From contig OY762721.1 of assembly GCA_963666345.1 (NCBI GenBank), positions 576,001-640,000 of the forward strand: DNA of 64,000 nucleotides, given 5' to 3'. This document shows positions 2,039 to 24,135 of the stretch, piece after piece (the first letter of the stretch is position 1; each line of letters starts with the position of its first letter). Under the pieces are notes generated by a model. It was not told where the DNA came from, did not search any database, and saw only the letters and a list, made by a program, of their open reading frames with translations. The DNA comes from Desulfatiglandales bacterium. GTDB taxonomy: Bacteria > Desulfobacterota > DSM-4660 > Desulfatiglandales > Desulfatiglandaceae. Both the position numbers and the translations under genes were made by a program.

Positions 2039-2095
2039 CGGGTTAATGGATTTTCAAATTTATTGTAGTCCTTATTTAGACTGTGCCGTCCTTTC

Positions 2096-2120: not shown

Positions 2121-2181
2121 GTTAAACTTTTTTATTAAGCCTTTAATTTTGTTTGGGATTTTTTTTAAGCGTATAATGACA

Positions 2182-2226
2182 TAAAAAGACTGCCGCGAAG
2201 GTTACGAACCTTTCACGGCAGTCTTT
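2182..2226 (-). terminator. Rho-independent terminator of adhesin copy 2
   Basis: Minus strand AAAGACTGCCGTGAAAGGTT-CGT-AACCTTCGCGGCAGTCTTTTTA: long hairpin plus U-tract, ~35 nt after the stop at 2261. Confidence 0.8.
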
Positions 2227-2260
2227 GTTCTTGCAAGGTTATGTTTTTACTGTTTATTGT

Positions 2261-8200: not shown

Positions 8201-8287
8201 TACGGCCTTTACCTTACCGTAGATGATAAATGCCTTGCCTACCGCCTGATTCGTACCGGATGCCTGCGTAGATGTCGTGTCTGCCAT
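2261..8287 (-). CDS. Large LapA-like RTX adhesin (retention module, nidogen-like, DUF5801-like repeats, DUF4114-like, VCBS/Ig-like, vWA, RTX repeats)
   Basis: ~2008 aa, Asp/Gly/Thr-rich. N-terminal retention-module pattern with ELEATAAG. NIDO-like IAPFFADVDTR...FQL. vWA IVFVLDTSGSM...FVSDG. C-terminal GGxGxDxI nonapeptides. ATG 8287 with AAGGAG RBS. Confidence 0.9.
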   Translation of the reverse strand: MADTTSTQASGTNQAVGKAFIIYGKVKAVSEDGATRVLSVNSPIFAFDRIITEGDGSVSIMLDGPPPTQLDIGRMSDIVIDEDVYAGVAPEDVAEATADAEQIQQALLEGGEEIELEATAAGGAAGAGGGHPIVSFDLTGEEVTPGSGAETTGLTGDAVDPLDGNAIDDQPTAGESFAMVDDEGLAGGIEGGIGDEVVDPDDDGNEATFSGVLAHDFGGDGPGFIGFAGMNGQTAMVGTEEVTYSWDAGTSTLTAVISDGDRADTPLFEVQVNPLTGEYTVTLLDNVLHESLDGEEGDNTENDATATLTYTVSDSDGDTANGTLAVTFDDDTPELLGDEGEPEEPDGQDVVAMASSYTGIPGPGEGGNVLVNNLGGPNGFGENFLAANDDGSTGFIDVTSIFTGGMNLFGQTYNGFYINNNGNITFESAMGTYTPFAITGATSNPMIAPFFADVDTRGADGNVSPGGNSTGSNLVWYDLDEVNGVITITWDDVGFYSQDTSLVNGFQLRIFDQGDGDFGFEFRYENIDWTTGDASGGTDGLGGVIARAGWTAGDGVNYYELPQAGDQAGMLGLETTSNPSTSPDGNWVFNVIGGEITVGGGSSDTVTVEDEKMTGGNDEDDGGLGVVNGTIVDNVNWGADDFGSVVQFTVGEQSFEAGTTVYWDQYGNFMGEGLMASSTGPALMMSVEVVDQLPTPAASLIVNSDGTYTYTLLDNMLMGQDDQGEQTDVLDTVAIVGQDADGDEAPAVNVTLQVTDDMPELYVEGGSDTVTVEDEKMEGGIDEDDGGVSSVDGTIVDNVSWGADGFASATGFSVGQASFDVNTTVYWDEYGNFLGTEGEGAAASLLVNSNGTYTYTLLDNMLLGQDDQGEQTDVLDTVSITGQDADGDLQAVDVTLQVTDDMPVADIVEAPLIDGEVPSTVTVDETDGVQDDDTTDPAVSALFGGLTGTSSDLTTAQYAQGYYSLVDTSGSSYGADEEGGTTVVSLSIAADGTDSGLETTDGTQIFLYKSGDLVVGRIGTEAGDGTDTADPSGAIAFAVAIDADDGTVSLAQYASVTNPTGGSSHDETVDLTGKISAVVTVTDGDGDIDTDSTDIGDQIYFSDDGPSVTAESGAETYSFTAEYQNVGVAGYNNSYGYYIKDGDGNPTTGEIIWANVKVASGPVTVEGYPPEQVGFFIIPDGGGQNSGLADGEEVYFQEVSPGVWQAYETDTDTPLTGTGANIFFDNAALNVDRYSHVQDNEWPGNQNWEDLLGSTDSDYEDVNVNVTWNAGLKVDESDFDTDDTKDFSTYFNIEGGADGLESVVYTLGVAAAGVDSGLIDSESGNHVFLFVENGEVVGREGTDATAAVSGDIVLTVSVDGTGNVTLDQARAVMHATSDPDEIITLADAGSVTLTATATDGDGDTAADTIDIGTLVRFGDDAPTAADDSDSVTEDDNTTATGNVLTGIDVPGGDENATDGTADDAGADGGPAVTWVRTGDIGDSSTPVDAGVSLAGDYGTLTLNSDGSYEYVLDNDDEGVQSLDDGETLTDTFTYSMRDADGDTSMATLTITINGADEPVLIVGSGDDDEAGSEPLWTVPDTGSGEIAGAGGDDILIGDPGGAGIGAGDTANIVFVLDTSGSMVGSRLNGLKAAVNDALADLQSYEAENVRVHIIEFSYSASPVGTYNLTSGGVDDAGELAAAVAAVNGLTAGGLTNYAAALAQADTWISGAGPHSGADMNNVVFVSDGSPTTGGSFADEVSSILTGSDFMIEAVGINVGDSALEMLDQVEGSPPGTPGHVADNVTSPEQLSAIIGELSGGQATLDPAGDDTIDGGEGDDIIFGDAPYTDDLAASTVDGSGWQALIDEYGGDLDQIADYIKANHEALSAESGRDGGNDTIDGGAGDDIIYGQEGDDTIDGGSGEDMLDGGSGDDALTGGDDADTFKSGEGHDAIMDYDQAEGDVIDFTHIAGLDHYDVRDDGGKAELVLLDSGENELGSVTFDNIDFDSLAGDPLTTLLGDLDIDDGTP
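5580..6485 (-). repeat. Internal tandem duplication of a ~145-155 aa adhesin module
   Basis: SDTVTVEDEKMxGGxDEDDGG...YTYTLLDNML.GQDDQGEQTDVLDTV...LQVTDDMP occurs twice; shared DNA blocks such as AAGCACGTCCGTCTGCTCGCCCTGGTCGTCCTGACC. Confidence 0.85.
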
Positions 8288-8310
8288 GATCAAATCTCCT
8301 TATATTGGAT
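6273..8310. repeat. Direct repeat, copy B (~2.04 kb)
   Basis: Matches 1-2038; identity ends abruptly 23 nt upstream of the ATG. Confidence 0.95.
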
Positions 8311-8761: not shown

Positions 8762-10414
8762 ATGTTCCGGCGGATACTGGATTGTGCCAGCAGGCAAACC
8801 TCAAAAATCGCCTTTCTTGAAGAAATCCTGAAGATACTGATGGATTTTTCGGGGTGCGACTCAACCGCCTTTCTTATGCAGGACGGGAAGAAATACCACT
8901 GTTTCAAGTCCTATAAAAAAAGCGGGGACCCGTTCGATTTTGAAATCATAAATCTCATTCACGGGCAAAAGTCTCTTGAAGGGATGAAATATCTGAGAAA
9001 ATGGGGCCGGGGCATTCCCGGTTTCCCCCCTTTTTTCCGTTACAGAGATGGGGGTTTGTGGGTAAACGATACATCTGAATTTTTGGATGAATGCCCTGAC
9101 CCTGTTGTCGAGATTTTAAAGGAACTTATTCCTGCCGTATCATCATATCCTTCTGCGGCCCTTGTACCCATTGAAGCTGACGGCTCTCATGCCGGAATTT
9201 TACAACTGGGAAGCAGGAAGGCTTATCACTTCAAAGAGACTGAAACGGACAACTATAAAGGGATAATCGAAAGCATCGGCACTGCGTTGAAGGTCTGGCA
9301 GGTTCATTCAGCCCTTAATGAGCGAGTCAAGGAACTCACCTGCCACTACAATATACTGCAACTGTCCGATCAACCGGACAGGACCCTGGATGAAATTTTC
9401 AAAGGGGTTGTTGAGCTTCTTCCCCCTGCATGGCAATTCCCGGACGCTGCCACGGCCCGGATCGTATTTGACGGAGAGGTCTATGCATTGCCCGATTTTC
9501 AAAAGGCAAAAGACAGGCAATCATCCTATATAATCGTTAAGGGCAAAAAACGTGGGTTCATAGAGGTGGCATACACCGAAGATAAGCCTGAGCTGGATGA
9601 GGGCCCGTTTCTGAGGGAAGAAAGAGAGCTTATTGAAAGCGTTTCGAGAGAATTATCGCTGATCATCCTGAGAAGAGTAAGCGAAGAAGAAAAGAGCGAG
9701 CTGTTGGATCAGCTCAGACACGCCGATCGGTTGGCTATTATAGGCCAACTGGCCGCAGCCGTGGCTCATGAACTGAATGAACCACTGGCAAATATCCTGG
9801 GATTCTCTCAGCTTGCATTGAAATCGGAAGGAGTTCCCGAACAGACAAGGCAGGATATTGAGAAAATATCAGCCGCATCTCTTCATTCAAGAGAAATCAT
9901 CAAAAAATTATTGGCGTTCGCACGACAGACACCCTCAAAAAAATCCCTTGTAAGCCTGAATCAGGTTGTAAAGGAAACACTCTATTTCCTTGATTCCAGA
10001 TGCGCTAAGGAAGGCATCACCATGAAATTATCCCTCCACCCCGACATTCCGGATATCATCGCAAACGCGGGACAGCTCATGCAGGTCCTGACAAATCTGG
10101 TGGTAAATTCCATGCAGGCGATGCCCGAAGGCGGCAATCTCACCATCAGCACCCTTAACAAGGGGGATTATGTTATTCTTGCCGTGGAAGACACGGGAAT
10201 CGGCATGAGCGAGGATGTCAAGGAAAAGATTTTCACGCCTTTTTTTACAAACAAAGTCGCCGGGCAGGGAACAGGCCTGGGGCTGCCGGTCGTCCATGAC
10301 ATCATAATGGCCCATGGAGGAAGGATGAAAGTGGAAAGCGATGTCGGTCAAGGAACAAGTTTTGAGATCCGTCTGCCGGTCAACCGGCCGGAAAGGACCA
10401 GGACAGATGATTAA
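8762..10414 (+). CDS. Cytoplasmic sensor histidine kinase (GAF-like input, HisKA, HATPase)
   Basis: H-box AHELNEPL, N-box NLVVNS, G boxes DTGIG and GTGLGL; no transmembrane helix. Confidence 0.92.
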   Translation: MFRRILDCASRQTSKIAFLEEILKILMDFSGCDSTAFLMQDGKKYHCFKSYKKSGDPFDFEIINLIHGQKSLEGMKYLRKWGRGIPGFPPFFRYRDGGLWVNDTSEFLDECPDPVVEILKELIPAVSSYPSAALVPIEADGSHAGILQLGSRKAYHFKETETDNYKGIIESIGTALKVWQVHSALNERVKELTCHYNILQLSDQPDRTLDEIFKGVVELLPPAWQFPDAATARIVFDGEVYALPDFQKAKDRQSSYIIVKGKKRGFIEVAYTEDKPELDEGPFLREERELIESVSRELSLIILRRVSEEEKSELLDQLRHADRLAIIGQLAAAVAHELNEPLANILGFSQLALKSEGVPEQTRQDIEKISAASLHSREIIKKLLAFARQTPSKKSLVSLNQVVKETLYFLDSRCAKEGITMKLSLHPDIPDIIANAGQLMQVLTNLVVNSMQAMPEGGNLTISTLNKGDYVILAVEDTGIGMSEDVKEKIFTPFFTNKVAGQGTGLGLPVVHDIIMAHGGRMKVESDVGQGTSFEIRLPVNRPERTRTDD

Positions 10415-11762
10415 CGACCCTTCTTCAATGAATATGGAATGCATTCTAGTCGTGGATGACGCCCCCGGCACTCTAGAGATCATCCGTCGAAATCTGACCT
10501 CAAAAGGATACCGTGTCTTTACCGCAGGCAACGTGGCGGAGGCGGTCAGTATCCTTGACACGACGATAATGGATCTGGTTGTTACCGATTTGAAGATGCC
10601 GGGAGCCGACGGATTCGATCTTTTAAGACATGTAAGGGAAAACTTCAAAGATATTGAAGTGGTTATGATAACCGGTTTTCCCAGCATCGAGGGGGCGGTC
10701 AGGGCCGTAAAGATAGGCGCGGAAGAATACCTGCCGAAACCCTTTACCGATGAAGAGCTCTTTTCCACGGTCACTCATGCATTGCAAAAACTGCGGGAGA
10801 GAAGAAATGCCCGCAATAAAACCACACCCTTTGACCATTATGGAATAATCGGGGAGTCAAAGGCGATGCGCAGTGTCTTCAGATTCATAAGAAGGGCATC
10901 TGAGACATCGGCGACAGTGCTTATATGCGGTGAAAGCGGCACCGGGAAAGAGGTCGTGGCACGGGCAATACATTACAACGGCAAAAGGGCCGCCGCACCT
11001 TTTGTTCCTGTTAACTGCGGGGCGATTCCGGAAAATCTGCTCGAAAGCGAGCTCTTCGGCTATGTAAAGGGCGCCTTTACAGGGGCTGTAGAATCGCGTG
11101 CCGGTTTTTTTCAAATCTCCGATAAAGGCACGATATTTCTGGATGAAATCAGTGAAGCAAGCCTTCCAATGCAGGTCAAACTCCTCAGGGTGCTTCAGGA
11201 TAAAGAGATATTCATGCTGGGCTCCAGCCGGTTGGCCAAGGTGGATGTCAGGGTTATGGCCGCCACAAACAGGAATCTCACCGAGCTGGTCAAAAAACGT
11301 GCCTTCAGGGAAGACCTGTTCTATCGCCTGAATGTGGTCACAATCGACATACCCCCTTTGAGGCAGAGGAGGGAAGACATAGCACCTTTAGCCCATCATA
11401 TGATCGGCAAATTTGCAAAGGAATTCGATAAAGAGCCGCCCCATATCTCAGATGAGGCTTTCAAGGCCCTTGAGACATATCAATGGCCTGGAAATGTCAG
11501 GGAATTGGAGAATATTATCCAGCGCCTGGTGGTCATGACGGAAGGCCATAAAATAGAGGTCTCGGACCTCCCCTCTTTAATGCGCTTTTCCGCCCCGAAC
11601 TGCTCAAGCCTGGATCGTTCCCTGAAGGAGGTTGAAACAGGGTACATTCGAAATGTCCTGGAAAGCGTTGACGGAAACAAGACACAGGCGGCAAGGATAC
11701 TGGGCATAGACCGCAAGACCCTTCGGGAAAAACTTAAGTCATCCGAAACAGGCGCTGCTTGA
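10407..11762 (+). CDS. NtrC-family sigma-54-dependent response regulator
   Basis: Receiver (LVVDD, DLKMP, KP), Walker A GESGTGKE, GAFTGA, WPGNVREL, Fis-type HTH; start overlaps the kinase stop. Confidence 0.95.
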   Translation: MINDPSSMNMECILVVDDAPGTLEIIRRNLTSKGYRVFTAGNVAEAVSILDTTIMDLVVTDLKMPGADGFDLLRHVRENFKDIEVVMITGFPSIEGAVRAVKIGAEEYLPKPFTDEELFSTVTHALQKLRERRNARNKTTPFDHYGIIGESKAMRSVFRFIRRASETSATVLICGESGTGKEVVARAIHYNGKRAAAPFVPVNCGAIPENLLESELFGYVKGAFTGAVESRAGFFQISDKGTIFLDEISEASLPMQVKLLRVLQDKEIFMLGSSRLAKVDVRVMAATNRNLTELVKKRAFREDLFYRLNVVTIDIPPLRQRREDIAPLAHHMIGKFAKEFDKEPPHISDEAFKALETYQWPGNVRELENIIQRLVVMTEGHKIEVSDLPSLMRFSAPNCSSLDRSLKEVETGYIRNVLESVDGNKTQAARILGIDRKTLREKLKSSETGAA

Positions 11763-11772
11763 CCGGCTTAAA

Positions 11773-11808
11773 CCGGGTAATTTCTCCTCAGCGGGACAAA
11801 ACTCCCCA
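11773..11808 (+). promoter_or_regulatory. Putative tandem enhancer (UAS) for the sigma-54 activator
   Basis: Two adjacent 18-bp imperfect palindromes, CCGGGTAATTTCTCCTCA and GCGGGACAAAACTCCCCA, ~155-190 bp upstream of a -24/-12-like site. Confidence 0.55.
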
Positions 11809-11962
11809 TGTTAGCGGAAGCCTCCCTATACCGCAAAAGGACTCCCAAGGGCTCCCCTTTCCCACATCTTTTCCCCATTAACCAACCGTTGTTACACCTT
11901 TTTTTTGCACCTTTTTTTTCTGATTCAAAAGAAATCAGGGAACAATCCGTTATTTCAGCTAA

Positions 11963-11979
11963 TTAGCACGCAAATTGCA
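11963..11979 (+). promoter_or_regulatory. Sigma-54 (-24/-12)-like promoter, non-canonical
   Basis: TTAGCACGCAAATTGCA versus consensus YTGGCACG-N4-TTGCW; one mismatch, in the -24 GG. Confidence 0.55.
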
Positions 11980-12031
11980 TTTCCTTTTCAATAGATGAAA
12001 AGACATTGCAACAATTTTCAAACCATGATTC

Positions 12032-12373
12032 ATGGAGATGAAAATTATGACGTCCTTGACTAAAAAAAAGCCCTGCCCCACCGAGCAGCCCAGTGGACTC
12101 TGTTTAACTTGCAACAAATTCCCAACATGTGTCTATCCAAAAAATTCGCTTAGACCTGTCTTGTTCTGCGATGAATTTGAAGGCTATGAAGACTTCCCGC
12201 CTCAGCCTGTGCGCATAATTTCGCCCTCCCGCCCTGTCGTCTCCAGTGACACTGAAGATCAAGAGGACAGCTCATTACCGCTGCTGGGACTTTGCCGGAT
12301 CTGTGAAAGGCGCCATGAATGCACATATCCCAAACCGGAAGGGGGCGTGTGGCACTGCGAAGAGTACCTGTAA
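12032..12373 (+). CDS. Small Cys-rich protein with a duplicated 4-Cys motif
   Basis: GLCxxC-x5-CxYPK-x7/9-C[DE]E[FY] present twice. Confidence 0.8.
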   Translation: MEMKIMTSLTKKKPCPTEQPSGLCLTCNKFPTCVYPKNSLRPVLFCDEFEGYEDFPPQPVRIISPSRPVVSSDTEDQEDSSLPLLGLCRICERRHECTYPKPEGGVWHCEEYL

Positions 12374-12429
12374 CAATAAAAAGGCCCGGTCTTTGTCCTG
12401 TATAAAAGATCTATTTCAAAAGGAGCGGC

Positions 12430-13278
12430 ATGTCAGAAGAGCGTATACTGGATATCATCAACAGGCATGAAGGGCAGCTTGGGGGCCTGATAAGCGTACT
12501 CCAGGATATTCAAAACGAATACAGCTATCTTCCTGAAAAAGCATTGAGGCTCGTGGCGGACAAGACAGGCTCCTCGCTGGTAGATATTTACGGTGTGGCT
12601 ACCTTTTACAGGTCCTTCAGCCTGAAGCAGAGGGGCAAGCACCTCATATCGGTCTGCACGGGAACCGCATGCCACGTGCGGGGGTCCGCGAATATCCTGG
12701 ATGAATTCGAGCAACGCTTGGGAATAAAGGCTGGAGAGACAACTTCGGACAAACTGATTACCCTGCAAACCGTGAATTGTCTCGGGGCGTGTGCCCTCGG
12801 TCCTATCGTGGTCGTTGACGGTCATTACTTTTCCGATGTCAAGCGGCCGATGGTGAAGCAGATCATAAAATCTGCAAAAAGCGGCCTCGACCGGGTGGAT
12901 ATCGAGACAGATGAACGGATCTTTCCTGTCGACGTGAGCTGTCCAAGATGCAACCGCAGTCTTATAGACAGAAAGGTATATATCGAAGGGTACCCGTCCA
13001 TACTGGTTATGGTCTCGTTCGGGGAAAGGCATGGCTGGCTGAGGCTTTCAAGCCTGTATGGGAGTTATTCGGTGGAGCATGAGCATGAAATACCGCCAAA
13101 AGAGGTCGTTCACTTCTTCTGCCCCTACTGTAATGGGGAACTGGCCGGGGTTTCGATCTGCGCATCCTGCGGCGCGCCAATGGTACCTATGATCGTCAAA
13201 GGGGGAGGCACGGTGCATATCTGTTCCCGCCGGGGTTGCAAAGGGCACATGCTCAACTTGAGCAAAGTCGCTTTTTAA
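12430..13278 (+). CDS. NuoE/HydC-like [2Fe-2S] subunit with extra C-terminal Cys-rich domain
   Basis: VATFY, CTGTACHVRG, CLGACALGP; extension with CPRC, CPYC, CASC, CSRRGC; AAGGAG RBS. Confidence 0.9.
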   Translation: MSEERILDIINRHEGQLGGLISVLQDIQNEYSYLPEKALRLVADKTGSSLVDIYGVATFYRSFSLKQRGKHLISVCTGTACHVRGSANILDEFEQRLGIKAGETTSDKLITLQTVNCLGACALGPIVVVDGHYFSDVKRPMVKQIIKSAKSGLDRVDIETDERIFPVDVSCPRCNRSLIDRKVYIEGYPSILVMVSFGERHGWLRLSSLYGSYSVEHEHEIPPKEVVHFFCPYCNGELAGVSICASCGAPMVPMIVKGGGTVHICSRRGCKGHMLNLSKVAF

Positions 13279-13334
13279 AAGCACCCCGGTCCTTTGGCTT
13301 TGATCGGGACGGAGGATATATTTCAGGTCAATCG

Positions 13335-15185
13335 ATGAGAAGACTTACATCCATAGAAGATTTCGAGGCCCTGCAGAACAGGTTGAAAGCCGAGCGGGAC
13401 GATGGTTTACCCACGATTATCATCCCGTCAGGCACATGCGGCCAGGCCAGCGGCGCAAACGACCTGATTCGGGTGGCAAAACGGGAGATACTTCAGAGAA
13501 AATTGACCCGCAGGGTCAACCTGAGAATCACCGGTTGCCACGGATTCTGCCAGATGGAGCCCTCCGTACTGGTGGAACCTGAAGGCACCTTTTATCCAAA
13601 AACAGACATGAAAGGAATGAAGAGGATAATTGATGCGGTTATAAACGGGAAGATCTTGGAAGATCTGCTATTCAAAGACCCGGATACCGGAATGCCGATC
13701 CAACGTCAACAGGATCTGCCGTTTTTCAAAAGGCAGGTCCGGACCATCATGAGCCATAATGAGAAAGTCGACCCTCTTCATGTCAACGACTACATAGGCT
13801 CAGGAAGATACTCGGCCCTGGCCGAGGTCCTGAAAAAGGGAGACCCCGGCTGGACAATCGAAGAGGTCAAAATCAGCGGGCTGCGCGGACGCGGCGGGGC
13901 GGGTTTTCCCACAGGCCTCAAATGGGAACTGCTGGCAGGGCAAAATCACGATCCCGGGAAATTTCTGGTCTGCAATGCGGATGAAGGCGATCCGGGCGCC
14001 TATATGGATCGCAGCGTTTTAGAGGGAAACCCCCACGCTATTATCGAGGGGATGATCATAGGCGCCTATGCGACCGGTGCAACAGGGGGAGTGATTTATG
14101 TCCGGAACGAATACCCTCTTGCCATAAAACATCTTATCATAGCCCTTAGGCAGGCCGTAGAGACAGGACTGCTTGGAGATAACATCCTGGGAACCGGTTT
14201 TTCTTTTCATATCCATATGGTCAGGGGGGCGGGCGCCTTCGTATGCGGAGAGGAGACAGCCCTGATCAGTTCAATAGAGGGGAAAATGGGCGAACCCAGA
14301 CAGCGTCCGCCTTTTCCCGTGCAAAAGGGAATAAACGGGAAACCGACAGCCATAAATAACGTTGAGACATGGGCAAACATACCGGTCATCTTCGACCGGG
14401 GAGGTCGTGAATTCTCCAAGACAGGGGTAGAGAATAACTCAGGCACCAAAATTTTCAGCCTCGTAGGCAAGGTCAAATACACGGGGCTGGTGGAAGTGCC
14501 GATGGGCATGAAGATTAAAGACATAGTCTACGAGATCGGAGGAGGGCCGTCGGGAAAAGCAGGAATAAAGGCGGTCCAGACCGGGGGGCCTTCGGGCGGT
14601 TGCATACCGGCCCATCTTTTCGACCTCCCCATTGATTACGACAGTCTCAAAGGGGTCGGATCGATCATGGGCTCGGGCGGCATGATCGTCATGGACGAAA
14701 AAACCTGTATGGTGGACATGGCGAAATATTTCATGAGCTTTCTGAAGGATGAGTCATGCGGCAAATGTTTTGTGTGCCGCAAGGGTATCCAGCGAATGCA
14801 TGAGATCCTGGATGACATCTCGCAAGGCAAAGCCACAATGCTGCATCTGGACCTGCTGGAAGAGTTGGCACAGGTGGTAAAAGACGCAAGCATGTGCGGC
14901 CTTGGCCAGACAGCCCCCAATCCTGTCCTGTCCACCCTCAGATACTACCGTGATGAATATGTCGCCCATATCAAGGAGAGACGCTGCCCGGCCGGTTCCT
15001 GCAAGTCCCTGATCACATATTCAATAAACGAACTCTGCACTGGCTGTCATCTCTGCAGCGGGGCATGCCCTGCAGATGCCGTTACCGGCAACAAAAAAGA
15101 GGCGCACTCCATTGACCCGGCCAAATGTGTCAGGTGCGGCGCCTGCATGAGCGTCTGCAAATTCGATGCTATAGAGGTTGTTTAA
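13335..15185 (+). CDS. NuoF/HydB-like NAD(H)-binding flavoprotein subunit
   Basis: GLRGRGGAGFPTG, CNADEGDPGAYMDR, GAFVCGEETAL, ESCGKC..CR, N-terminal 2Fe-2S domain, C-terminal 2[4Fe-4S]. Confidence 0.95.
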   Translation: MRRLTSIEDFEALQNRLKAERDDGLPTIIIPSGTCGQASGANDLIRVAKREILQRKLTRRVNLRITGCHGFCQMEPSVLVEPEGTFYPKTDMKGMKRIIDAVINGKILEDLLFKDPDTGMPIQRQQDLPFFKRQVRTIMSHNEKVDPLHVNDYIGSGRYSALAEVLKKGDPGWTIEEVKISGLRGRGGAGFPTGLKWELLAGQNHDPGKFLVCNADEGDPGAYMDRSVLEGNPHAIIEGMIIGAYATGATGGVIYVRNEYPLAIKHLIIALRQAVETGLLGDNILGTGFSFHIHMVRGAGAFVCGEETALISSIEGKMGEPRQRPPFPVQKGINGKPTAINNVETWANIPVIFDRGGREFSKTGVENNSGTKIFSLVGKVKYTGLVEVPMGMKIKDIVYEIGGGPSGKAGIKAVQTGGPSGGCIPAHLFDLPIDYDSLKGVGSIMGSGGMIVMDEKTCMVDMAKYFMSFLKDESCGKCFVCRKGIQRMHEILDDISQGKATMLHLDLLEELAQVVKDASMCGLGQTAPNPVLSTLRYYRDEYVAHIKERRCPAGSCKSLITYSINELCTGCHLCSGACPADAVTGNKKEAHSIDPAKCVRCGACMSVCKFDAIEVV

Positions 15186-15246
15186 CGACCCGGGAAAAGC
15201 CTTCTATTGAAACAGGCTCGACCCCGGGAGTTGAGGATTTCGAATT

Positions 15247-15924
15247 ATGATAAAAATGAGCATCAACCGTTTACCCGTTTCAGTGGAAGAGGGAACGACC
15301 ATTCTGGAGGCTGCAAAATCCGTGGGTTTTCCGATCCCGACCCTCTGCTACATGGAAGGCCTGTCCCCGTATGGTGCGTGTCGGCTCTGCGTGGTGGAAA
15401 TCGGAGAAGGGCCCGGTTCCAGGCTGGTATCCTCATGTACTTATCCGGCAGAAGAGGGGCTCAAGGTTCGAACCGCCTCAACCCGAGTACTCAAGGCAAG
15501 AAGGATGATACTGGAGCTTCTCCTTGCCTCCTGTCCTCAGTCGAAGACCATTCAGGACCTTGCTTCGGCCCATGGAATCAGGCAGCAGCGATTCAGGCAG
15601 GAATATGAAGACTGCATCCTGTGCGGATTATGCGTGCGCATGTGTGAAGAGCAGATGAGGGCCAAGGCCATCGGTTTCAGGGGCAGAGGAGAGAACCGGA
15701 GCATAGGCACCCCTTTTGATGTCCAGTCGGAAACCTGCAGGTTCTGCGGCGGGTGCATGTATGTATGCCCGGCCTGCCAGTTGAGATGCACGTACACTGA
15801 ACCGGAAAAGGCTATTTGCGGGGGCTGTGAAAACCTCAGGCCTCCATGCATCGAAAAGGAACCCTTTGACGATATGATGTGCTACATGGACCCCTGTGTG
15901 GCCTGCGAGATACGGAAGGACTAA
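15247..15924 (+). CDS. NuoG/HydA N-terminal-like Fe-S subunit lacking a catalytic domain
   Basis: IPTLC...GACRLC...SC (2Fe-2S), CILCGLCVRMC, CRFCGGCMYVCP, then a short Cys-rich tail; only 225 aa. Confidence 0.9.
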   Translation: MIKMSINRLPVSVEEGTTILEAAKSVGFPIPTLCYMEGLSPYGACRLCVVEIGEGPGSRLVSSCTYPAEEGLKVRTASTRVLKARRMILELLLASCPQSKTIQDLASAHGIRQQRFRQEYEDCILCGLCVRMCEEQMRAKAIGFRGRGENRSIGTPFDVQSETCRFCGGCMYVCPACQLRCTYTEPEKAICGGCENLRPPCIEKEPFDDMMCYMDPCVACEIRKD

Positions 15925-15945
15925 TTAAGAAAGGAGAACGGCGAC

Positions 15946-17529
15946 ATGTCACTTTCAAAAATAAACGCCTCTGCCGCTACATTGACCAAAAACAGGACTG
16001 AAGGATCCATAGTACCCTCTTCAGGCATGTGCGTGACATGCGTGGATGGCTGTATAGGCATGTGCGAAATAGGAAAGTCCGCCTACCGGGGTCATGAGGT
16101 GATTTATCCCCAGCCCTTTGGGGTCATAACCACTGCTGGAGAAAAAGATTACCCGGTGGATTACTCCCATTTTAATATCATGGGTAGCACGGTCGGGGCC
16201 CACGGCATAGAAGAAGACAGTGACAGGGCCATATTCCCATCGGTAAACCTTGAAGTGGTTATCGGCCATGACAAAGGCCTGAAATTTCGTTACCCCTGGA
16301 TCATTCCGGGAATCGGTTCAACCAATATCGCCAAACAGAACTGGGATGGGCTGGCAATAGGATCGGCACTGGCGGGGACAGGTCTCACGATAGGTGAAAA
16401 CGTCGCAGGCATGGACCAGGGCTGTAAGATAAAGCATGGGCGCGTAGTAGACACGGTGGACCTCAAAAGAAGGGTGAAGCTCTACCAGAATCACCAGCGC
16501 GACGGCTACGGGGCGATCATTCTTCAGGCCAACATAGAGGATACACGTCTGGAGGCGCAGGAATATGCCATAGAAAACCTGGGCATTGAGTGTGTCGAGC
16601 TGAAATGGGGTCAGGGAGCGAAAAGCATAGGGGGTGAGGTAAAGATCCGGGACCTGAAAAAGGCCCAAATGCTTCATGACCGTGGTTATATAGTAATTCC
16701 CGACCCGAAAGATCCGGTGGTGATCAGGGCCTTTGAGCGGGGGGCGTTCAAGGAGTTTGAAAGACACTCGCGGGTCGGGATGGTAACCGAAGAGGCATTC
16801 GCCAAACGCATCGAGGAACTGAGAAAAGCGGGTGCCCGTTATATATCTTTAAAAACAGGCGCTTATCGGCCTTCTGATCTTGCAAGGGCTCTTGCATATT
16901 CTTCCAAGTACGGGTTGGATTATCTTACCGTCGACGGTGCGGGCGGAGGCACGGGCATGAGCCCCTGGCGTATGATGAATGAATGGGGAATTCCCCCCGT
17001 ATACCTCCACTCACTCCTTTTCAGCTACGCGGAAAAACTTTCAGCAAAAGACAGATATGTGCCTCCCCTGGTGTTGGCAGGTGGATTTACCCTTGAGGAT
17101 CATATCTTCAAGGGCCTGGCCCTCGCGTCACCTTACGTCAAAATGATAGGCATGGCCAGGAGCCCGATTGCCGCAGCTATGGTAGGAAAGACTATCGGCC
17201 AGGCCATCGACGCCCATCAGCTTCCCGTTTATGTGGAACGTTTCGGCAGCTCAAAGGATGAAATTTTTGTCACATCCCCTTCACTGCGCAAAGAATTGGG
17301 TGACAAGGAATTCGAGAATCTGCCGGCCGGCGCCATAGGTCTTTATACCTATTATGAAAGGCTTGCCCATGGATTGCGTCAACTCATGGCAGGTTCAAGA
17401 AAGTTTTCCCTTGATCAGGTCAACAGGCATGATATCGCGGCATTGACGGAGGAGGCCGCCAATATAAGCGGGATCAGGTATATCATGGATGTGGACAGGG
17501 AGATGATTGAGGATATCCTTGGATGTTAG
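15946..17529 (+). CDS. FMN-binding glutamate synthase family protein (stand-alone GltB domain-2 type)
   Basis: ELKWGQGAKSIGGE, TVDGAGGGTGMSP, EWGIP, N-terminal CxxCxxxCxxxC; no amidotransferase domain; AAGGAG RBS. Confidence 0.88.
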   Translation: MSLSKINASAATLTKNRTEGSIVPSSGMCVTCVDGCIGMCEIGKSAYRGHEVIYPQPFGVITTAGEKDYPVDYSHFNIMGSTVGAHGIEEDSDRAIFPSVNLEVVIGHDKGLKFRYPWIIPGIGSTNIAKQNWDGLAIGSALAGTGLTIGENVAGMDQGCKIKHGRVVDTVDLKRRVKLYQNHQRDGYGAIILQANIEDTRLEAQEYAIENLGIECVELKWGQGAKSIGGEVKIRDLKKAQMLHDRGYIVIPDPKDPVVIRAFERGAFKEFERHSRVGMVTEEAFAKRIEELRKAGARYISLKTGAYRPSDLARALAYSSKYGLDYLTVDGAGGGTGMSPWRMMNEWGIPPVYLHSLLFSYAEKLSAKDRYVPPLVLAGGFTLEDHIFKGLALASPYVKMIGMARSPIAAAMVGKTIGQAIDAHQLPVYVERFGSSKDEIFVTSPSLRKELGDKEFENLPAGAIGLYTYYERLAHGLRQLMAGSRKFSLDQVNRHDIAALTEEAANISGIRYIMDVDREMIEDILGC

Positions 17530-17619
17530 TTTAATGCCGGTAAGATACGGTGCGTCATCCTTGCTCCGGCTATGTTTGCCATGCATCTAATGGAAATATT
17601 AAAAAACTTCACCGCGCAA

Positions 17620-17647
17620 GAAAAAAGGCCCGGGTTATCGTAACCGG
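17620..17647 (-). terminator. Probable terminator between convergent genes
   Basis: Minus strand CCGGTTA-CGA-TAACCCGG followed by GCCTTTTTTT. Confidence 0.5.
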
Positions 17648-17669
17648 CGATGTCTGCCCAAAAGGGGCT

Positions 17670-19139
17670 TCAGGCGTAGTCCGGCTCCAGCCTGTTTTGA
17701 AGTGAATATCGCTCAAAAAACTCTATAAGCTCCTGCTTGATAAGATCCGCCTTTTCAAGCGCGTTCAGGTATTCATCCTTTAACAGGGTAATTTTATCCA
17801 TATTCTTCAGGAACTCCTCGCGGAACGCGTCCTTTTTTTCCATACCCCTTTCGTATTCATCCCTGAGAGAATTCAAACCGTCTTTCAATGCAATCAGGTA
17901 CTCCTCTTTAAGGGTGACGAGTCTCTCAACTGCCTTTTCATATTCACCACGCAGGCTGCACACGCTGTTTTCCCTGGCGCAGAGATATTGCTCCTTGAGT
18001 TCCTTAAGCAGCTCCTTTACCGATATTATCTTATCGACCCTGTAGGCATTGCTTCCTGCAAAGGCGAAGCCTTTATCCAGCACCCCCTTTCTGGCATTAT
18101 CGAGCGCAAGTGAAATACAGTAGGGAGCGGTCTTTATGTCGCAGCTCTTGAGACACCGCCACGCGCACTTGTGGGATTGTCTTTTGCCGGAGGCCACATC
18201 CCTCAAAAAATCGTTCTCTATGGCCCTGCCTGGCATGCCCACAGGACTCTTTATGATCTTTATGTCGCCCTTACTGCATGACACATACGACTCCTTGAAC
18301 CTTATATCCGCATCGCACTCATGGGTTGCAACAAACCTTGTCCCCATCTGAACACCCTTTGCACCCAGCTTTAGGGCGTTGTAGATATCAGCACCGGTAA
18401 AAATGCCCCCCGCGGCGATTACGGGGATTGTCCTGCGCCAATCATCCTCGTATTTCTTTATCTCGGCAACTACCCCTGGAAGGATATTTTCAAGGGCGAA
18501 ATCGGCATCATCGATCTGATCCTCTTTAAAGCCCAGGTGACCTCCCGCCTTGGGCCCTTCCACAACGACCGCGTCCGGGATGTCTGAATATTTTTTCGCC
18601 CAGGATCTGAATATAAGGCCTGCCGCCCTTACGGAACTCACGATAGGCACTACCTTGACACCGGCCGATCTCAGGTCGGCAACAGGAATTCCCTTTATCG
18701 GGAGTCCGGCCCCGAGGAATACCATATCCACCTTTTCTTCTATCGCGACCCTTAAAAGGGAACTGAAATCATTGACCGCCACCATGATGTTGACGCCGAT
18801 AATACCGGAGGTGTTTTCTCTTGCCTTTCTAATCTCCCTTCTGAGGGCGATGGCATTGGCGTCCCTGTTTTTCGCATAATATTCAGGATCAAGCATACCT
18901 ATGGAATTGGCTGCAATAATACCGATCCCTCCTTCATTTGCGACCGCTGAGGCGAGGCCTGAAAGGGATATTCCGACCCCCATTCCACCCTGTATGATCG
19001 GCAGCCTTGACACTGTATCACCGATCCTCAATTTGGGCATTGTGAGCCATCCGATCCTAGAGATATCAAATTTAGGCCATTCTATGTTATTAAAGCATAT
19101 CTTGGGAAGCTGGAACTTGGGAAATTTAATGAAATCCAC
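17670..19139 (-). CDS. Nitronate monooxygenase / FabK-like flavoprotein with coiled-coil C-terminal extension
   Basis: PIIQGGMGVGIS, EGPKAGGHLG, AAGGI, GVQMGTRF, CxxxCLxxC; GTG start with AAGGAG RBS. Confidence 0.88.
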   Translation of the reverse strand: MDFIKFPKFQLPKICFNNIEWPKFDISRIGWLTMPKLRIGDTVSRLPIIQGGMGVGISLSGLASAVANEGGIGIIAANSIGMLDPEYYAKNRDANAIALRREIRKARENTSGIIGVNIMVAVNDFSSLLRVAIEEKVDMVFLGAGLPIKGIPVADLRSAGVKVVPIVSSVRAAGLIFRSWAKKYSDIPDAVVVEGPKAGGHLGFKEDQIDDADFALENILPGVVAEIKKYEDDWRRTIPVIAAGGIFTGADIYNALKLGAKGVQMGTRFVATHECDADIRFKESYVSCSKGDIKIIKSPVGMPGRAIENDFLRDVASGKRQSHKCAWRCLKSCDIKTAPYCISLALDNARKGVLDKGFAFAGSNAYRVDKIISVKELLKELKEQYLCARENSVCSLRGEYEKAVERLVTLKEEYLIALKDGLNSLRDEYERGMEKKDAFREEFLKNMDKITLLKDEYLNALEKADLIKQELIEFFERYSLQNRLEPDYA

Positions 19140-21327: not shown

Positions 21328-23994
21328 TTAGTACTTTACATCATAGGTAAACAGGTATTTTTCACCCTTTTCGATCGGTTCAAAGCTCGCCCCTATTCTT
21401 TCCGCCATCCTGATGAGACCCTTGTTGCCGGGAAGAAACCGCGCCCACAGCCTTTTAAGACCCTGTTTTTTCGCCATCTCTATCCCTATATCCACCAGAA
21501 GGGTTGCAACCCCATGCCTCTGCCAGGGATCACCCACAACGACAACCCATTCGGCCTCTTCTCCGTCCGGATTTCCCGTGAACCTGGTCAAACCAACCAT
21601 CAGGGGGCGCTCCCCTGATCGATCAATCGCTACCATTGCAAGATCCCTGTCGTAGTCTATCTGGGTGAACCTTGCCAGCACCTCCGGTCCGAGAGTCTTC
21701 ACATTGGCCAGGAAGCGGTTGCAGATTGTCTCCTCACTCATATTTTCAAACAGCTCAACGAGCATCGGCCCGTCCTCAGGCCTGATAGGCCTGATAAAAA
21801 GCTTCAGGCCCGTTCGTGTTTCAGCCTCCATTTCGTACTGATACGGATAAGAGCTGATTGCCAGATGCATTGGAGCCGGTTTATCATTAGGTTTTATCAC
21901 AACCCTCGCATCTACCGCATAGGCATCATTTTTCGTCATTATAAGAGGGTTTATATCCAGTTCGGCGATTTCGGGCAAATCCGTCACAAGCTGGGAAATC
22001 CTCACCAATATCTCCTCAAGCAGTTCCAGGTTGACTCCCGGCTGCCCCCTGTAGCCCCTGAGCAGTCGGTAGACCTTGGTCTCCTCCATTATCCTTCTTG
22101 CAAGAAGACGGTTGAGCGGCGGAAGACCAATGGCCCTGTCCTTGAGCAGTTCCGTCATTACCCCTCCCATACCGAAGAGGATTACAGGTCCGAAGTCGGG
22201 GTCCTGTTTTGATCCGACTATTACTTCATAACCCTTCTCCTTAATCATCTCCTGAATAGTGACCCCTCCAAAATCGGCATCAGGATCATACGTCTTTACA
22301 GATGCCTCGATTTCTTCAAAGGCATCGATTACCTCGTCGGCGTTACGCAAATCCAGTCTTATGCCGCCTGCATCCGATTTATGGGTTATACTGTTTGAAT
22401 GTACCTTTGCCACCACCGGATAACCCATGTTGTGGGCAAACTGAACCGCCTTAAGGGCCGTTGTAGCAACGATAGTCCTGTTAATGGGTATTCCGTAAGA
22501 GCTGAGAAGAGATTTCGACTCCATCTCGGTCAGAAGCCCCCTTTTCTTTTCAAGTGCCCTTTCAACGATTGTCCTGGCGCCCAGTCTGTCGTAAACGATC
22601 TCTTTTGAAAGCTCTTTGGGAATCTCCTGAAGAAGTTTCAGGTTCCGCTCGTAATTATAGAGATAGTAAAACGCGCGGATGGCCCCTTCCGGCGATGGAT
22701 AGGTGGGTATTCCCTGATCATTAAGATATTTCCGGCCCGGTTCCACTTCAAGCCCCCCCAGAAGGACCGCGAAAACAGCGCAGTCCCTTCCGGCCAGTGT
22801 GCCGGCAAGCTCTCTGGCTATCTTTTCCGAGGGATAGTTTCCAACAGGAGGAGTCATAAAGAGGATGGCATCGAATTCCTCCGCCTTTATGCATATCTCT
22901 CCGACACTCTTAAGCATCTCAATGGTTGCCGAACCTGTAAGATCTATAGGATTTCCATGACTCCAGAACGAGGGCGCCACCTTGTTTATCTTTTCAATTG
23001 TATCAGGCCTCAGAGGTGCCGGTTCCATATCGTATCTTGCAAGGTAGTCGGCGGCCATGACCCCCGGGCCGCCTGCCGTGGTTATTATGGCGAGATTGGG
23101 CCCCATCGGCTTCGGTTGTTTTGCCATGAGCTCAGCACATCCGAAAAGATCTTCCAGGGTCTCGACCCTTACTATGCCCGCCCGCTTGAACGCCGCATCA
23201 TAAACGGCATCAGCTCCCGCAAGAGATCCAGTATGCGACTGCGCCGCCTTTGCGCCGGCATCAGACCTCCCACTCTTGAGAACCACTATCGGTTTTATAC
23301 GGCTCACGGCGCGAGCGGCGCTCAGAAATCCCCTGGGCTCCACGACTCCCTCAATATAAAGCAGAATGCTGCTGACTTTCGGATCAAGCCCCAGGTAATC
23401 TATAAGGTCCCCGAAATTCACATCCAGCATTGAACCTATGCTTATAAAATGGCTGAAGCCGATCTTTTCCTTGGCCGCAAAATCGAGCACGCTTGCGCAG
23501 ACAGCACCGCTCTGAGATATAAAAGCGAGGCTGCCCGAAAGAGGCATGCTATGGACAAAGCTGGCATTCAGGTTGGAGGCCTCGGCCACTACCCCCATGC
23601 AGTTAGGCCCTACCACCCTTATACCGCCTTGATGAGCTATCTCTTTTATCCTTTTCTCGATCAGGGCGCCTTCACGCCCCACCTCTTTTCCACCGGCCGA
23701 GATTATAACCGCACCGCCCACACCACATTGAGCGCATTCCTCCATGATATCCGGGACAGTGGCAATCGGGGTACATATGACCGCCAGATCAACAGGCTCT
23801 TCCAGGGAACTCAGTGTGGGAAAGGTCCTCATGCCTAGGATCTCTCTTTTTTTAGGGTTGATCGGGTACACGCTTCCCTCAAAGACTTTGAGATTCTCTA
23901 TTACCGACCTTCCTATGGCCCCTTCCCTGTCGGTTGCGCCTATAACCGCTACCGATTCCGGTTTCAATATCTTTTCTATGTTATAAAGACTCAT
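21328..23994 (-). CDS. Acyl-CoA ligase (ADP-forming)-like / GNAT protein acetyltransferase fusion (Pat/YfiQ family)
   Basis: SVAVIGA, GPNCMG, SQSGA, SHTGSLAG, HKSDAGG, ELDINPL, C-terminal GNAT (IRPIRPED...QRHGVA). Confidence 0.92.
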   Translation of the reverse strand: MSLYNIEKILKPESVAVIGATDREGAIGRSVIENLKVFEGSVYPINPKKREILGMRTFPTLSSLEEPVDLAVICTPIATVPDIMEECAQCGVGGAVIISAGGKEVGREGALIEKRIKEIAHQGGIRVVGPNCMGVVAEASNLNASFVHSMPLSGSLAFISQSGAVCASVLDFAAKEKIGFSHFISIGSMLDVNFGDLIDYLGLDPKVSSILLYIEGVVEPRGFLSAARAVSRIKPIVVLKSGRSDAGAKAAQSHTGSLAGADAVYDAAFKRAGIVRVETLEDLFGCAELMAKQPKPMGPNLAIITTAGGPGVMAADYLARYDMEPAPLRPDTIEKINKVAPSFWSHGNPIDLTGSATIEMLKSVGEICIKAEEFDAILFMTPPVGNYPSEKIARELAGTLAGRDCAVFAVLLGGLEVEPGRKYLNDQGIPTYPSPEGAIRAFYYLYNYERNLKLLQEIPKELSKEIVYDRLGARTIVERALEKKRGLLTEMESKSLLSSYGIPINRTIVATTALKAVQFAHNMGYPVVAKVHSNSITHKSDAGGIRLDLRNADEVIDAFEEIEASVKTYDPDADFGGVTIQEMIKEKGYEVIVGSKQDPDFGPVILFGMGGVMTELLKDRAIGLPPLNRLLARRIMEETKVYRLLRGYRGQPGVNLELLEEILVRISQLVTDLPEIAELDINPLIMTKNDAYAVDARVVIKPNDKPAPMHLAISSYPYQYEMEAETRTGLKLFIRPIRPEDGPMLVELFENMSEETICNRFLANVKTLGPEVLARFTQIDYDRDLAMVAIDRSGERPLMVGLTRFTGNPDGEEAEWVVVVGDPWQRHGVATLLVDIGIEMAKKQGLKRLWARFLPGNKGLIRMAERIGASFEPIEKGEKYLFTYDVKY

Positions 23995-24135
23995 ATGCAA
24001 TACCTCATATTAAGATGCCAAAAGGGCTCTATCCGGAATTTTTCCGGTTACCTGCTTCTAGAGAACCCCCTATAAACTTAATCAGTTGATTTTCCCATTT
24101 TTTTATTTGGCTCAAGAGACTTTCAACCCAAAGAC

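Follow-up and report, generated by a model that had tools for sequence, protein, structure and literature searches.

In the 64,000-nucleotide stretch of a Desulfatiglandales bacterium genome analysed here (GenBank assembly GCA_963666345.1, contig OY762721.1, positions 576,001 to 640,000 of the forward strand; hereafter the window), five closely spaced genes at 12032-17529 form one predicted operon, the products of which likely assemble into one complex, a flavoprotein with iron-sulfur clusters that belongs to the Bfu (HydABC-like) family. By its cluster motifs and domains the locus is architecturally a Type 2 Bfu enzyme, and the subunit in the putative catalytic position is FMN527, a 527-aa flavin mononucleotide (FMN) barrel protein distantly related to the synthase domain of glutamate synthase. 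We propose, with our confidence about evenly balanced, that the enzyme would make (or oxidise) glutamate from 2-oxoglutarate and free ammonium, using NADH and ferredoxin; the substrate, direction, electron path and coupling of the complex are those that we infer.

A Bfu-type core with a short BfuA

The coordinates, strands and domains of the five genes agreed with the run of co-directional genes that an original prediction, made from the DNA letters, had placed here. The first gene, taken from the open reading frame (ORF) list, encodes a Cys-rich protein of 113 aa (12032..12373; all five genes lie on the + strand). It is followed by genes for a BfuC/HydC/NuoE-like subunit of 282 aa (12430..13278; ORF list and Pfam), a BfuB/HydB/NuoF-like subunit of 616 aa (13335..15185; Pfam, NCBIfam and PDB match), a short BfuA of 225 aa (15247..15924; Pfam, PDB match and Cys alignment) and FMN527, the putative catalytic subunit with its FMN-type (beta/alpha)8 barrel (15946..17529; Pfam, hhalign and an AlphaFold2 (AF2) model). 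The intergenic gaps are 56, 56, 61 and 21 bp in gene order, the last being that between BfuA and FMN527. The NuoF-like ORF is open from a TTG at 13236 (649 aa, 13236-15185), but its likely start is the ATG at 13335, because relatives align from residue ~34 of the 649-aa ORF. A scan of 11700-17800 for sigma-70 promoters and terminators gave counts equal to those of shuffled sequence and no informative internal terminator. In one metatranscriptome run, short contigs of relatives (85-99% alike) covered 28 of 30 bins, with a share of 0.11, and one 342-nt contig spanned the Cys-rich/NuoE junction; these contigs come from relatives, and as RNA-library contigs, which do not prove transcription, they give no more than a weak hint.

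The Cys-rich protein matched no Pfam or NCBIfam family and its Atlas look-alikes were all unnamed, but an alignment of 43 sequences revealed two repeats of the form GLC-x2-C-x5-C-x(9-12)-C-EE-[FY], giving eight conserved Cys. The NuoE-like protein matched 2Fe-2S_thioredx in Pfam (160.8 bits), with the [2Fe-2S] part at residues 1-150, and its top eight PDB matches were all C subunits of Bfu-type complexes (from 8a6t_C at 147.8 bits down to 7q4v_C at 110.3 bits), spanning residues ~3-152 only. The remainder is a conserved C-terminal extension of 130 aa (residues ~151-282; 12880-13278) carrying zinc-ribbon-like Cys pairs (Zn_ribbon_TFIIB, 24.5 bits at 243-276), which had no counterpart in any solved BfuC/NuoE chain.

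In the NuoF-like protein, matches to Complex1_51K (152.4 bits) and NADH_4Fe-4S (111 bits) mark an NADH/FMN site and an N3-type [4Fe-4S] cluster (B1); an N-terminal 2Fe-2S ferredoxin-like match lies at residues 64-144 and a Fer4 match at 598-647 (649-aa ORF numbering), the C-terminal domain being of the 2x[4Fe-4S] ferredoxin type. The protein aligned over its full length (28-613), with few gaps, to 7t2r_B, the HydB of the bifurcating NiFe-HydABCSL (707 bits), in keeping with the predicted HydABC-like diaphorase module, and scored 607-686 bits against six other solved Bfu-type B subunits (HydB of three FeFe-HydABC, NfnB, Stn and WorB), compared with 379 bits for the best non-bifurcating homologue, FdsB 6vw7_B. 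The Bfu family is described as having an invariant BfuBC core, with clusters B2-B5 missing from the non-bifurcating NuoF/FdsB/HoxF homologues (PMC9304861). Regions for these extra clusters were found in the BfuB of the operon at the level of domains and alignment. HoxEFU and FdsGBA share with the operon a NuoE/NuoF/NuoG-N trio feeding a separate catalytic subunit, but their B subunits are described as having neither the N-terminal [2Fe-2S] nor the C-terminal 2x[4Fe-4S] region that is found in the BfuB of the operon (PMC9304861).

The 225-aa NuoG-N-like protein ends, as had been predicted, before any H-cluster or molybdopterin domain: Pfam gave Fer2_4 and Fer4 only, with no other catalytic domain, and a secondary NCBIfam match was to HoxU (119 bits against a cut-off of 333). 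Its best PDB match was WorA (9mqx_A, 123.5 bits, residues 5-190). Among 19 orthologues the Cys set 34/45/48/64 of the [2Fe-2S] cluster A1 and the ferredoxin-type [4Fe-4S] sets 123/126/129/133 and 164/167/170/174 were invariant. With a single Cys (C96) in the stretch between residues 65 and 122 there is no His/Cys 4-ligand motif, and the His-ligated cluster A3 is therefore missing, as in WorA. The C-terminal tail carries a further six invariant Cys (177, 181, 191, 194, 201 and 212) and two that are near-invariant (217 and 220). Type 2 Bfu enzymes, as described in PMC9304861, have a BfuA with A1, A2 and A4 only and separate catalytic subunits. The short BfuA of the operon has the motifs for A1/A2/A4, has neither A3 nor A5 nor a catalytic domain, and is followed by the co-encoded FMN527; judged by sequence, the NuoE/F/G-N-like trio amounts to an entire Bfu core of the bifurcating type, in which BfuA is short.

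The same features are described for WorABCSL of Acetomicrobium mobile (9MQX; PMC12318220, PMC9304861), which has the full BfuBC core, a short BfuA with A1, A2 and A4 only, without a catalytic domain and with a Cys-containing C-terminal tail, and a catalytic subunit encoded separately in an adjoining gene. Match scores to this complex were 123.5 bits for WorA (247-aa BfuA), 624 bits for WorB and 118 bits for WorC. The two differ in that WorABCSL uses the tungstopterin subunit WorL and the polyferredoxin WorS, whereas the operon has a GltS-related FMN/Fe-S barrel and no WorS-like nanowire, and adds the 130-aa zinc-ribbon extension of BfuC and the Cys-rich 113-aa first gene; the third substrate is an aldehyde in WorABCSL and would likely be an amino or oxo acid for the operon enzyme. 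A C-terminal zinc finger and helix of WorA are described as a 'plug' of the core into the catalytic module (PMC12318220), and by analogy of position the Cys-rich tail of the short BfuA would have the same role. An AF2 model of BfuA built from a 19-row alignment was unusable for this tail (mean predicted local distance difference test (pLDDT) score 52.9, with residues 113-225 below 50), and complex prediction of FMN527 with the 225-aa BfuA returned 0.00 in both runs, which is no answer and weighs neither way.

Conservation, variants and regulation of the cassette

Scanning of one genome per species gave 596 relatives of FMN527, from which the best 80 loci (75-83% identity) were used. A gene for the short BfuA lay directly upstream of the FMN527 gene in all 76 loci with at least 750 bp of flank, with a median gap of 33 bp; a NuoF-like gene was upstream in 63/63 loci with at least 4 kb of flank and a NuoE-like gene in 60/60 with at least 4.9 kb. 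This arrangement of BfuA, NuoF, NuoE and FMN527 is far beyond chance; it shows the conserved synteny of nuoE/F/G-N with the FMN gene that had been proposed as a check, and strongly supports the prediction that the FMN protein is the partner of the module. The Cys-rich gene was less constant (44 of the 57 loci with at least 5.3 kb of flank; median identity 38%). Median identities to the window proteins were 59% for NuoE and 66% for NuoF, and the most conserved genes of the cluster were those for BfuA (56-87%, median 81%) and FMN527 (median 77%), in more than 15 phyla. These included Planctomycetota, Zixibacteria, KSB1, Bacteroidota, Ignavibacteria, Acidobacteriota, Desulfobacterota, Latescibacterota and the anammox bacterium Scalindua, among others. 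In a FastTree phylogeny rooted on genuine GltB2 the family sat on a long branch, within which the Bfu-linked clade was tight, with very short branches. Because the distribution is patchy, identity across phyla is very high and the regulators are self-contained, we suggest that the whole cassette may have spread laterally under strong constraint. One locus, L016, labelled uncultured Cytophagia, has a second NuoE/NuoF/NuoG-N-like set (10456-15815; 31-48% identity) ~1 kb downstream of its FMN gene.

These counts bear on whether the Bfu module and FMN527 might instead work as two independent enzymes encoded in one operon, with the module serving a hydrogenase or formate dehydrogenase (FDH) encoded elsewhere and FMN527 using free ferredoxin. 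Such an arrangement would fit with other clades of the family standing alone without Nuo-like genes, among them the genome's own paralogue of FMN527. The unbroken adjacency of BfuA and FMN527 (76/76, median gap 33 bp), their joint conservation at ~80% identity and the conserved Cys-rich tail of BfuA, positioned like the WorA plug, speak for a common complex instead, and NuoE/F/G-like genes recur, scattered, beside members of other clades as well (L142, L153, L161, L162 and L181). As for a partner encoded within the window, a scan of 34 of its 44 non-overlapping ORFs of at least 120 aa revealed no catalytic domain of a hydrogenase or FDH; the other 10 are all of ~200 aa or less. We consider separate enzymes hardly to be expected.

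Two variants of the cassette were distinguished by the C-terminus of BfuB. In 16 of the 68 classifiable loci, the window included, it is the ferredoxin-type two-cluster domain, while in the other 52 this is replaced by a fused GltD module (Fer4_20 plus Pyr_redox_2; a protein of 1058 aa in L005); 12 loci were too short to classify. Genome-wide searches for Fer4_20, GXGXG and GATase_2 gave 18, one and no matches (PF00310 was not found), with none for GltD, the amidotransferase or GXGXG within C1:576001-640000, the span of the window on its contig C1, so that the predicted absence of GltD, GltB1 and GltB3 from the window holds. The companion claim, that the NuoEF-like module takes the place of GltD, stands for the minority variant to which the window belongs and fails for the majority, where GltD is fused to NuoF.

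The majority variant contains all the modules of Stn/NfnABC (NuoE-, NuoF-, HydA-N- and GltD-like), and the BfuB of the window scored 645-682 bits to Stn (8oh5_B) and NfnB (9n5u_B), as would be expected if the complex were an Nfn/Stn-type transhydrogenase or an NADH:ferredoxin oxidoreductase in which FMN527 was a non-catalytic subunit for electron storage or regulation. NfnABC/Stn (9N5U, 9BOV, 8OH5) do share the BfuB/BfuC core (645-686 bits) and, in the majority variant, the GltD/NfnB-like NADPH module; in them, though, the GltD-like domain is fused to BfuA and forms the third-substrate site, whereas in the operon family it is fused to BfuB or missing and there is an additional FMN subunit. The window and the 16/68 loci of its type have no GltD or NADPH site but retain the FMN subunit, the gene for which is the most tightly constrained, and an FMN barrel with conserved GltS-like active-site motifs is unlikely to be passive. 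A transhydrogenase is, in our estimate, quite improbable.

Upstream of the operon lie genes for a soluble sensor histidine kinase of 550 aa (8762..10414, +; HisKA 46.9 bits, HATPase_c 93.7 bits) and a sigma-54-dependent response regulator with REC, AAA+ Sigma54_activat and HTH_8 domains (10341..11762, +; Sigma54_activat 231.4 bits). The kinase has a ~300-aa N-terminal sensor region ahead of HisKA and HATPase_c, and no obvious membrane segment when its sequence was read by eye. The best NCBIfam match of the regulator was ntrC (438.7 bits, under the cut-off of 558.6), and its real start is probably later than 10341, because the ORF start overlaps the kinase gene. Within the limit set by an 8-kb flank, orthologues of the kinase were found upstream of the operon in 35 of the 52 loci with at least 7.9 kb of flank (median identity 53%), and of the regulator in 39 of the 53 with at least 7 kb (median identity 63%). 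Residues ~183-305 of the kinase, just before HisKA, are 27-39% identical to the N-terminal region of ~750-aa PPDK_N proteins, the genes for which directly follow the FMN gene in L017, L018, L024, L033, L035, L070 and L080; this suggests that the kinase and the ATP-grasp-type PPDK_N protein may share a ligand-sensing domain.

A candidate sigma-54 -24/-12 element, TAGCAC-N5-TTGCA (TAGCACGCAAATTGCA), lies at 11964..11979 (+), 68 bp before the first ATG. It departs from the consensus at the first G of GG, and the pattern occurred six times in the window against 4.0 expected, which is not above chance; both points count against the site. Its weight comes only from its position and from the related loci, where a TGGCAY-N5-TTGCW-like site with at most one mismatch was found between regulator and operon in 34 of 41 (chance expectation roughly estimated at ~0.03 per region). 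Expression of the operon probably depends on a sigma-54 promoter that the neighbouring kinase and activator control.

FMN527 and its proposed link to glutamate

FMN527 matched no NCBIfam family, and PF01645 (Glu_synthase) was the only Pfam family that it matched. At E<=0.001 its relatives numbered 1047 of 1.84 billion representative proteins, 168 of them at E<=1e-30, and most were fragments. In a database clustered at 90%, all 8000 scored candidates were significant and the best 120 shared 77-100% identity; the source names of these included Sedimentisphaerales, KSB1, Deltaproteobacteria, Acidobacteriia, Eisenbacteria and WOR-3. Atlas look-alikes had automatic 'glutamate synthase' names or fell in unnamed clusters and gave no new lead.

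A profile-profile comparison by hhalign matched FMN527 to the genuine GltB2 of the same genome with 96% probability (E 4.4e-9, 188 columns, ~23% identity), pairing the motifs ELKWGQGAK with EFKYAQGAKPG, FERHS with FPFHS, and DGAGGGTGMSP with DGSYGGTGAAP. In an alignment of 116 family sequences K220, Q223-G-A-K226, G-G-E231, R246-G-Y and F-E-R273-H274-S-R were at least 95% conserved, as were L-K-T-G, GGTGMSPW and GGF-x2-ED-x2-FK. In GltS, the K of QGAK and an Arg ~20 residues later are substrate-binding or catalytic residues. We had taken FMN527 to have lost the second carboxylate-binding Arg of GltS when its motif was read by eye; this was dropped, as the invariant R246 lies one position away in the family alignment. 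An N-terminal motif, C29-x2-C32-x3-C36-x3-C40, is present in all family members and was paired by MAFFT with the first ferredoxin motif of split-type GltB2. Genuine GltB2 has a C-x2-C-x2-C...C motif after the last barrel strands.

The operon enzyme thus shares with GltS (Azospirillum GltBD, 6S6S, and the archaeal-type split form) a homologous FMN barrel with QGAK and GGTGxSP motifs, electron delivery by Fe-S clusters and, in most relatives, GltD in the complex. It differs in having no amidotransferase, no GXGXG and no internal [3Fe-4S] Cys motif and in taking its electron input from a NuoEF-type module, and the ammonia would have to come from solution. The earlier description of the protein as a plain GltB domain 2 was not upheld, since FMN527 belongs to a separate, distant family without the internal Fe-S site of GltS: on its motifs it is a derived relative of the GltS synthase domain whose cluster site has moved, and it falls outside the GOGAT (glutamate synthase) family in the strict sense. 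GltS-type chemistry is plausible for it.

The wider family offered functional context. A sister clade of 80 metagenome loci, 46-56% identical to FMN527, was collected by alignment of distant full-length relatives; it includes Thermoleophilia, Asgard and Clostridiales types and mostly lacks Nuo-like genes. The gene neighbourhoods of these loci were markedly uniform. A Glu/Leu/Phe/Val-dehydrogenase gene stood beside the sister-clade member in 18 of the 80 loci (17 by clustering, 15 of these downstream on the same strand), and was identified as NADP-specific GdhA (NCBIfam NF006929, 719.7 and 771.5 bits against a cut-off of 536). Other recurrent neighbours were a GAF-ANTAR regulator (11/80 by tblastn, 16/80 by clustering), NrpR (10/80), HisF (8/80), PPDK_N-domain proteins, some with a receiver domain (8/80), GlnA (5/80) and CarA (5/80). 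NCBIfam searches of seven sister-clade loci added CarB, PyrG, HisH, a glutamine-dependent NadE and an amidase, and placed a sigma-54 activator resembling NifA immediately upstream. Locus L129 has, likewise immediately upstream, an NfnA-like protein together with a pair of the GltA/GltD type (TIGR01316, 526 bits against a cut-off of 472). In the core clade, PPDK_N proteins were found in 28 of 80 loci. In G075, a genome of the same family as that of the window, the operon (L180, G075:C136:1-11844) is of the ferredoxin-type variant, with an FMN subunit 83% identical and with no Cys-rich gene or regulator pair in front, and is divergent, by ~290 bp, from a unit of a sister-clade paralogue, a PPDK_N-receiver protein (76% identical to that of L121) and NADP-GdhA. 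Such neighbours would be expected for an enzyme at the glutamate/2-oxoglutarate/ammonium node under nitrogen control.

The genome of the window also holds canonical enzymes of this node. As to gltB1, gltB3 and gltD, for which the original prediction had proposed searching the rest of the genome, a canonical split GOGAT was found outside the window next to glnA (C1:~1212588-1223439, L087). Its genes proper, at C1:~1212.6-1218.6 kb, encode an 881-aa GATase+GXGXG protein (with the sole GXGXG match of the genome, C1:1212813-1213307), a 525-aa Fer4+Glu_synthase protein (310 bits) and a 464-aa Glu_synthase-like paralogue, and they stand in one strand run with MTHFR, an MTHFR C-terminal-domain protein, a class II tRNA-synthetase-like gene and glnA. 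A glutamate dehydrogenase (GDH) gene lies at C1:3255883. There is, in addition, a stand-alone paralogue of FMN527 of 553 aa (C1:3835036-3836625, -; L179:9028-10689; PF01645 50.3 bits), 45% identical to it, or 41% by tblastn. Its gene has adenylate kinase on one side and selA on the other; genes for homoserine dehydrogenase and a class I/II aminotransferase are close by, and none for an electron-transfer partner adjoins it.

Within the class sample, family members (E<=1e-100) occurred in 130 of 201 genomes (71 of the 93 of high quality), the 43-45% clade of the stand-alone paralogue being common. Only five class genomes other than that of the window had true Bfu-linked-clade orthologues (identity of 78% or more), and three more had relatives at 64-65%. 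A few fairly complete genomes (G003, G018 and G042) had the family but no GXGXG.

Proposed reaction and its meaning

The proposed electron path was modelled on solved Bfu structures. NADH would dock at the FMN of BfuB, and ferredoxin at its C-terminal 2x[4Fe-4S] domain, in place of which most relatives would take NADPH at the fused GltD. Electrons would pass by way of BfuC and BfuB (B1) to clusters A1, A2 and A4 of the short BfuA, then to its Cys-rich tail, and from there to a [4Fe-4S] cluster bound by the four N-terminal motif Cys of FMN527 and on to the FMN of that subunit. There, 2-iminoglutarate, formed from 2-oxoglutarate and free NH3, would be reduced to L-glutamate, which is the synthase half-reaction of glutamate synthase without the glutaminase domain. 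NADH and reduced ferredoxin acting jointly, at a mean of ~-390 mV, would allow ammonium to be assimilated far below the range of NAD(P)H-dependent GDH, sparing the ATP of glutamine synthetase (GS), and in amino-acid fermenters the enzyme might run in reverse.

The couple of 2-oxoglutarate plus NH4+ and glutamate has an E°' of ~-0.13 V, as given by the equilibrium of GDH. For the electron donors, E' values of -280 mV (NADH), -500 mV (ferredoxin) and -380 mV (NADPH) are listed in Table 1 of PMC9304861. With assumed pools of 0.5 mM 2-oxoglutarate and 50 mM glutamate, we calculated that NADH alone would reach equilibrium near 1 mM NH4+, and that at the NADH/ferredoxin mean of -390 mV amination would remain favourable even with sub-micromolar NH4+. 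When nitrogen is limiting, the glutamate couple would therefore, by this calculation, enter the mid-potential range that Bfu enzymes serve. Classical bifurcation, or glutamate oxidation pulled by ferredoxin, would also be feasible, because -0.13 and -0.50 V average to about the potential of NADH.

A more specific form of the proposal, that this would be the first amino-acid-linked member of the Bfu family and would couple its electrons in one of two ways, we put forward tentatively, as an unlikely option. As a confurcating glutamate synthase, it would carry out NADH + 2 Fd(red) + 2 2-oxoglutarate + 2 NH4+ -> NAD+ + 2 Fd(ox) + 2 glutamate (Fd, ferredoxin), an ATP-independent, high-affinity reaction in which low-potential electrons would replace the ATP cost of GS-GOGAT. 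Alternatively, with NADH as donor for flavin bifurcation, exergonic reductive amination would drive electrons onto ferredoxin or, where GltD is fused, onto NADP+; in the reverse direction, amino-acid fermenters and syntrophs would use reduced ferredoxin to pull the oxidation of glutamate by NAD+, which is otherwise uphill.

A number of observations weigh against a glutamate enzyme. The PF01645 match of FMN527 was weak (34.6 bits against a cut-off of 20.4) and short (74 residues, 279-352). Searched by sequence against the PDB, FMN527 gave nothing significant (best E 0.065), and its family profile found mostly de-novo TIM barrels, with GltS only at E 0.08. The AF2 model of the protein (pLDDT 84.9, predicted template modelling score 0.87, residues 1-32 poor) was nearest in fold to mandelate dehydrogenase (1huv_A, Z 25.8, root-mean-square deviation (rmsd) 3.3, 301 residues aligned), IDI-2 (2zru_A, Z 25.8, rmsd 3.6, 319 aligned) and flavocytochrome b2 (Z 25.2; 1fcb_A, rmsd 3.3 over 298 residues), followed by IMPDH/GMPR at Z 21-23. 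The scores of these alpha-hydroxy-acid dehydrogenases and IDI-2 (Z 25-26) exceed that of Azospirillum GltS alpha (6s6s_A, Z 20.8, rmsd 3.9), although the latter gave the longest alignment (350 residues, 27-511 against 789-1190). FMN527 had no match to PF01070, the alpha-hydroxy-acid dehydrogenase/oxidase family, at E<=0.001. No Cys was present across the FMN527 family in the segment aligned to the internal [3Fe-4S] Cys motif of GltS. GdhA was found in only 9 of the 80 core-clade loci, and the domain scans of the window ORFs showed no nitrogen gene adjoining the operon; it is the neighbours of the family elsewhere (NADP-GdhA, GlnA, NrpR, GAF-ANTAR and glutamine-using enzymes) that tie it to glutamate and ammonium metabolism. 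The operon would not be the sole glutamate route, because split GOGAT, GDH and the paralogue coexist in the genome. That the family replaces canonical GOGAT was considered and rejected for lack of complementarity, GXGXG occurring in 160 of the 201 class genomes and the family in 130, mostly together. Finally, at standard conditions the glutamate couple lies above NAD, which misfits the mid-potential logic of Bfu enzymes unless the pools are far from standard.

Several of these points would be accommodated if the same complex acted on another substrate of the FMN subunit, either a 2-oxo, imino or hydroxy acid or an unrelated compound near -400 mV, and if the glutamate link were indirect, through regulation or pathway proximity. 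The very long branch that separates the family from genuine GltB2, the rarity of its matches (1047 of 1.84 billion), its top folds, the missing Fe-S site and the coexistence of GOGAT, GDH and the paralogue all fit such a substrate, as do the potentials of the characterised Bfu third substrates, given as -380 to -560 mV in PMC9304861. Set against it are the match to PF01645 as the only Pfam family, the alignment of the QGAK, GGE, RGY and GGTGxSP motifs to those of GltS, and the fusion of GltD, the natural electron donor of GltS, into 52 of the 68 related complexes. The recurring neighbours, moreover, are specifically glutamate and glutamine genes and nitrogen regulators, and no conserved neighbour points to an alternative. 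A different substrate remains, to our mind, a serious but less probable reading than a glutamate-forming or glutamate-oxidising Bfu enzyme.

Elsewhere the window contains housekeeping genes with no relation to the operon, and an rRNA operon. A gene for a 489-aa NMO/FabK-like FMN barrel protein (17670-19139, -; NMO 190.5 bits) converges on the end of the operon and is probably unrelated to it, because no such gene stood beside any of the 80 related loci. The region 1-8300, with 54-56% G+C against 42-53% elsewhere in the window, encodes at 2261-8293 (-) a 2010-aa protein that carries NIDO and DUF5801 domains and is possibly a laterally acquired surface protein. At 21328-24000 (-) an 890-aa ADP-forming acyl-CoA synthetase (CoA_binding, Succ_CoA_lig, ATP-grasp_5) is fused to a C-terminal GNAT domain, an architecture like that of Pat protein acetyltransferases. 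The rRNA operon at 30297-35663 (-) is complete, with 16S, two spacer tRNAs, 23S and 5S.

The operon enzyme appears to be undescribed in print. The word 'glutamate' does not occur in the main text of PMC9304861, nor is glutamate among the third substrates of its Table 1, although Supplementary Table 1 of that paper could list this type of operon. A full-text literature search turned up no description of a NuoEF/Bfu module paired with an FMN subunit of the GltB type, in agreement with the statement in the original prediction that a characterised enzyme of this architecture is not known. With its extreme conservation, its own sigma-54 regulator pair and two interchangeable input modules (ferredoxin domain or GltD), the system is a well-defined target. 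If the proposal is true, the nitrogen assimilation or glutamate catabolism of many anaerobes would run partly via an undescribed enzyme through which the glutamate/2-oxoglutarate node is directly coupled to the pools of NADH and ferredoxin. Models of ammonium affinity, ATP cost and redox balance in sediment and digester communities would then change. The list of Bfu third substrates would gain an amino acid, and a minimal glutamate-synthase core would be seen to work without a glutaminase.

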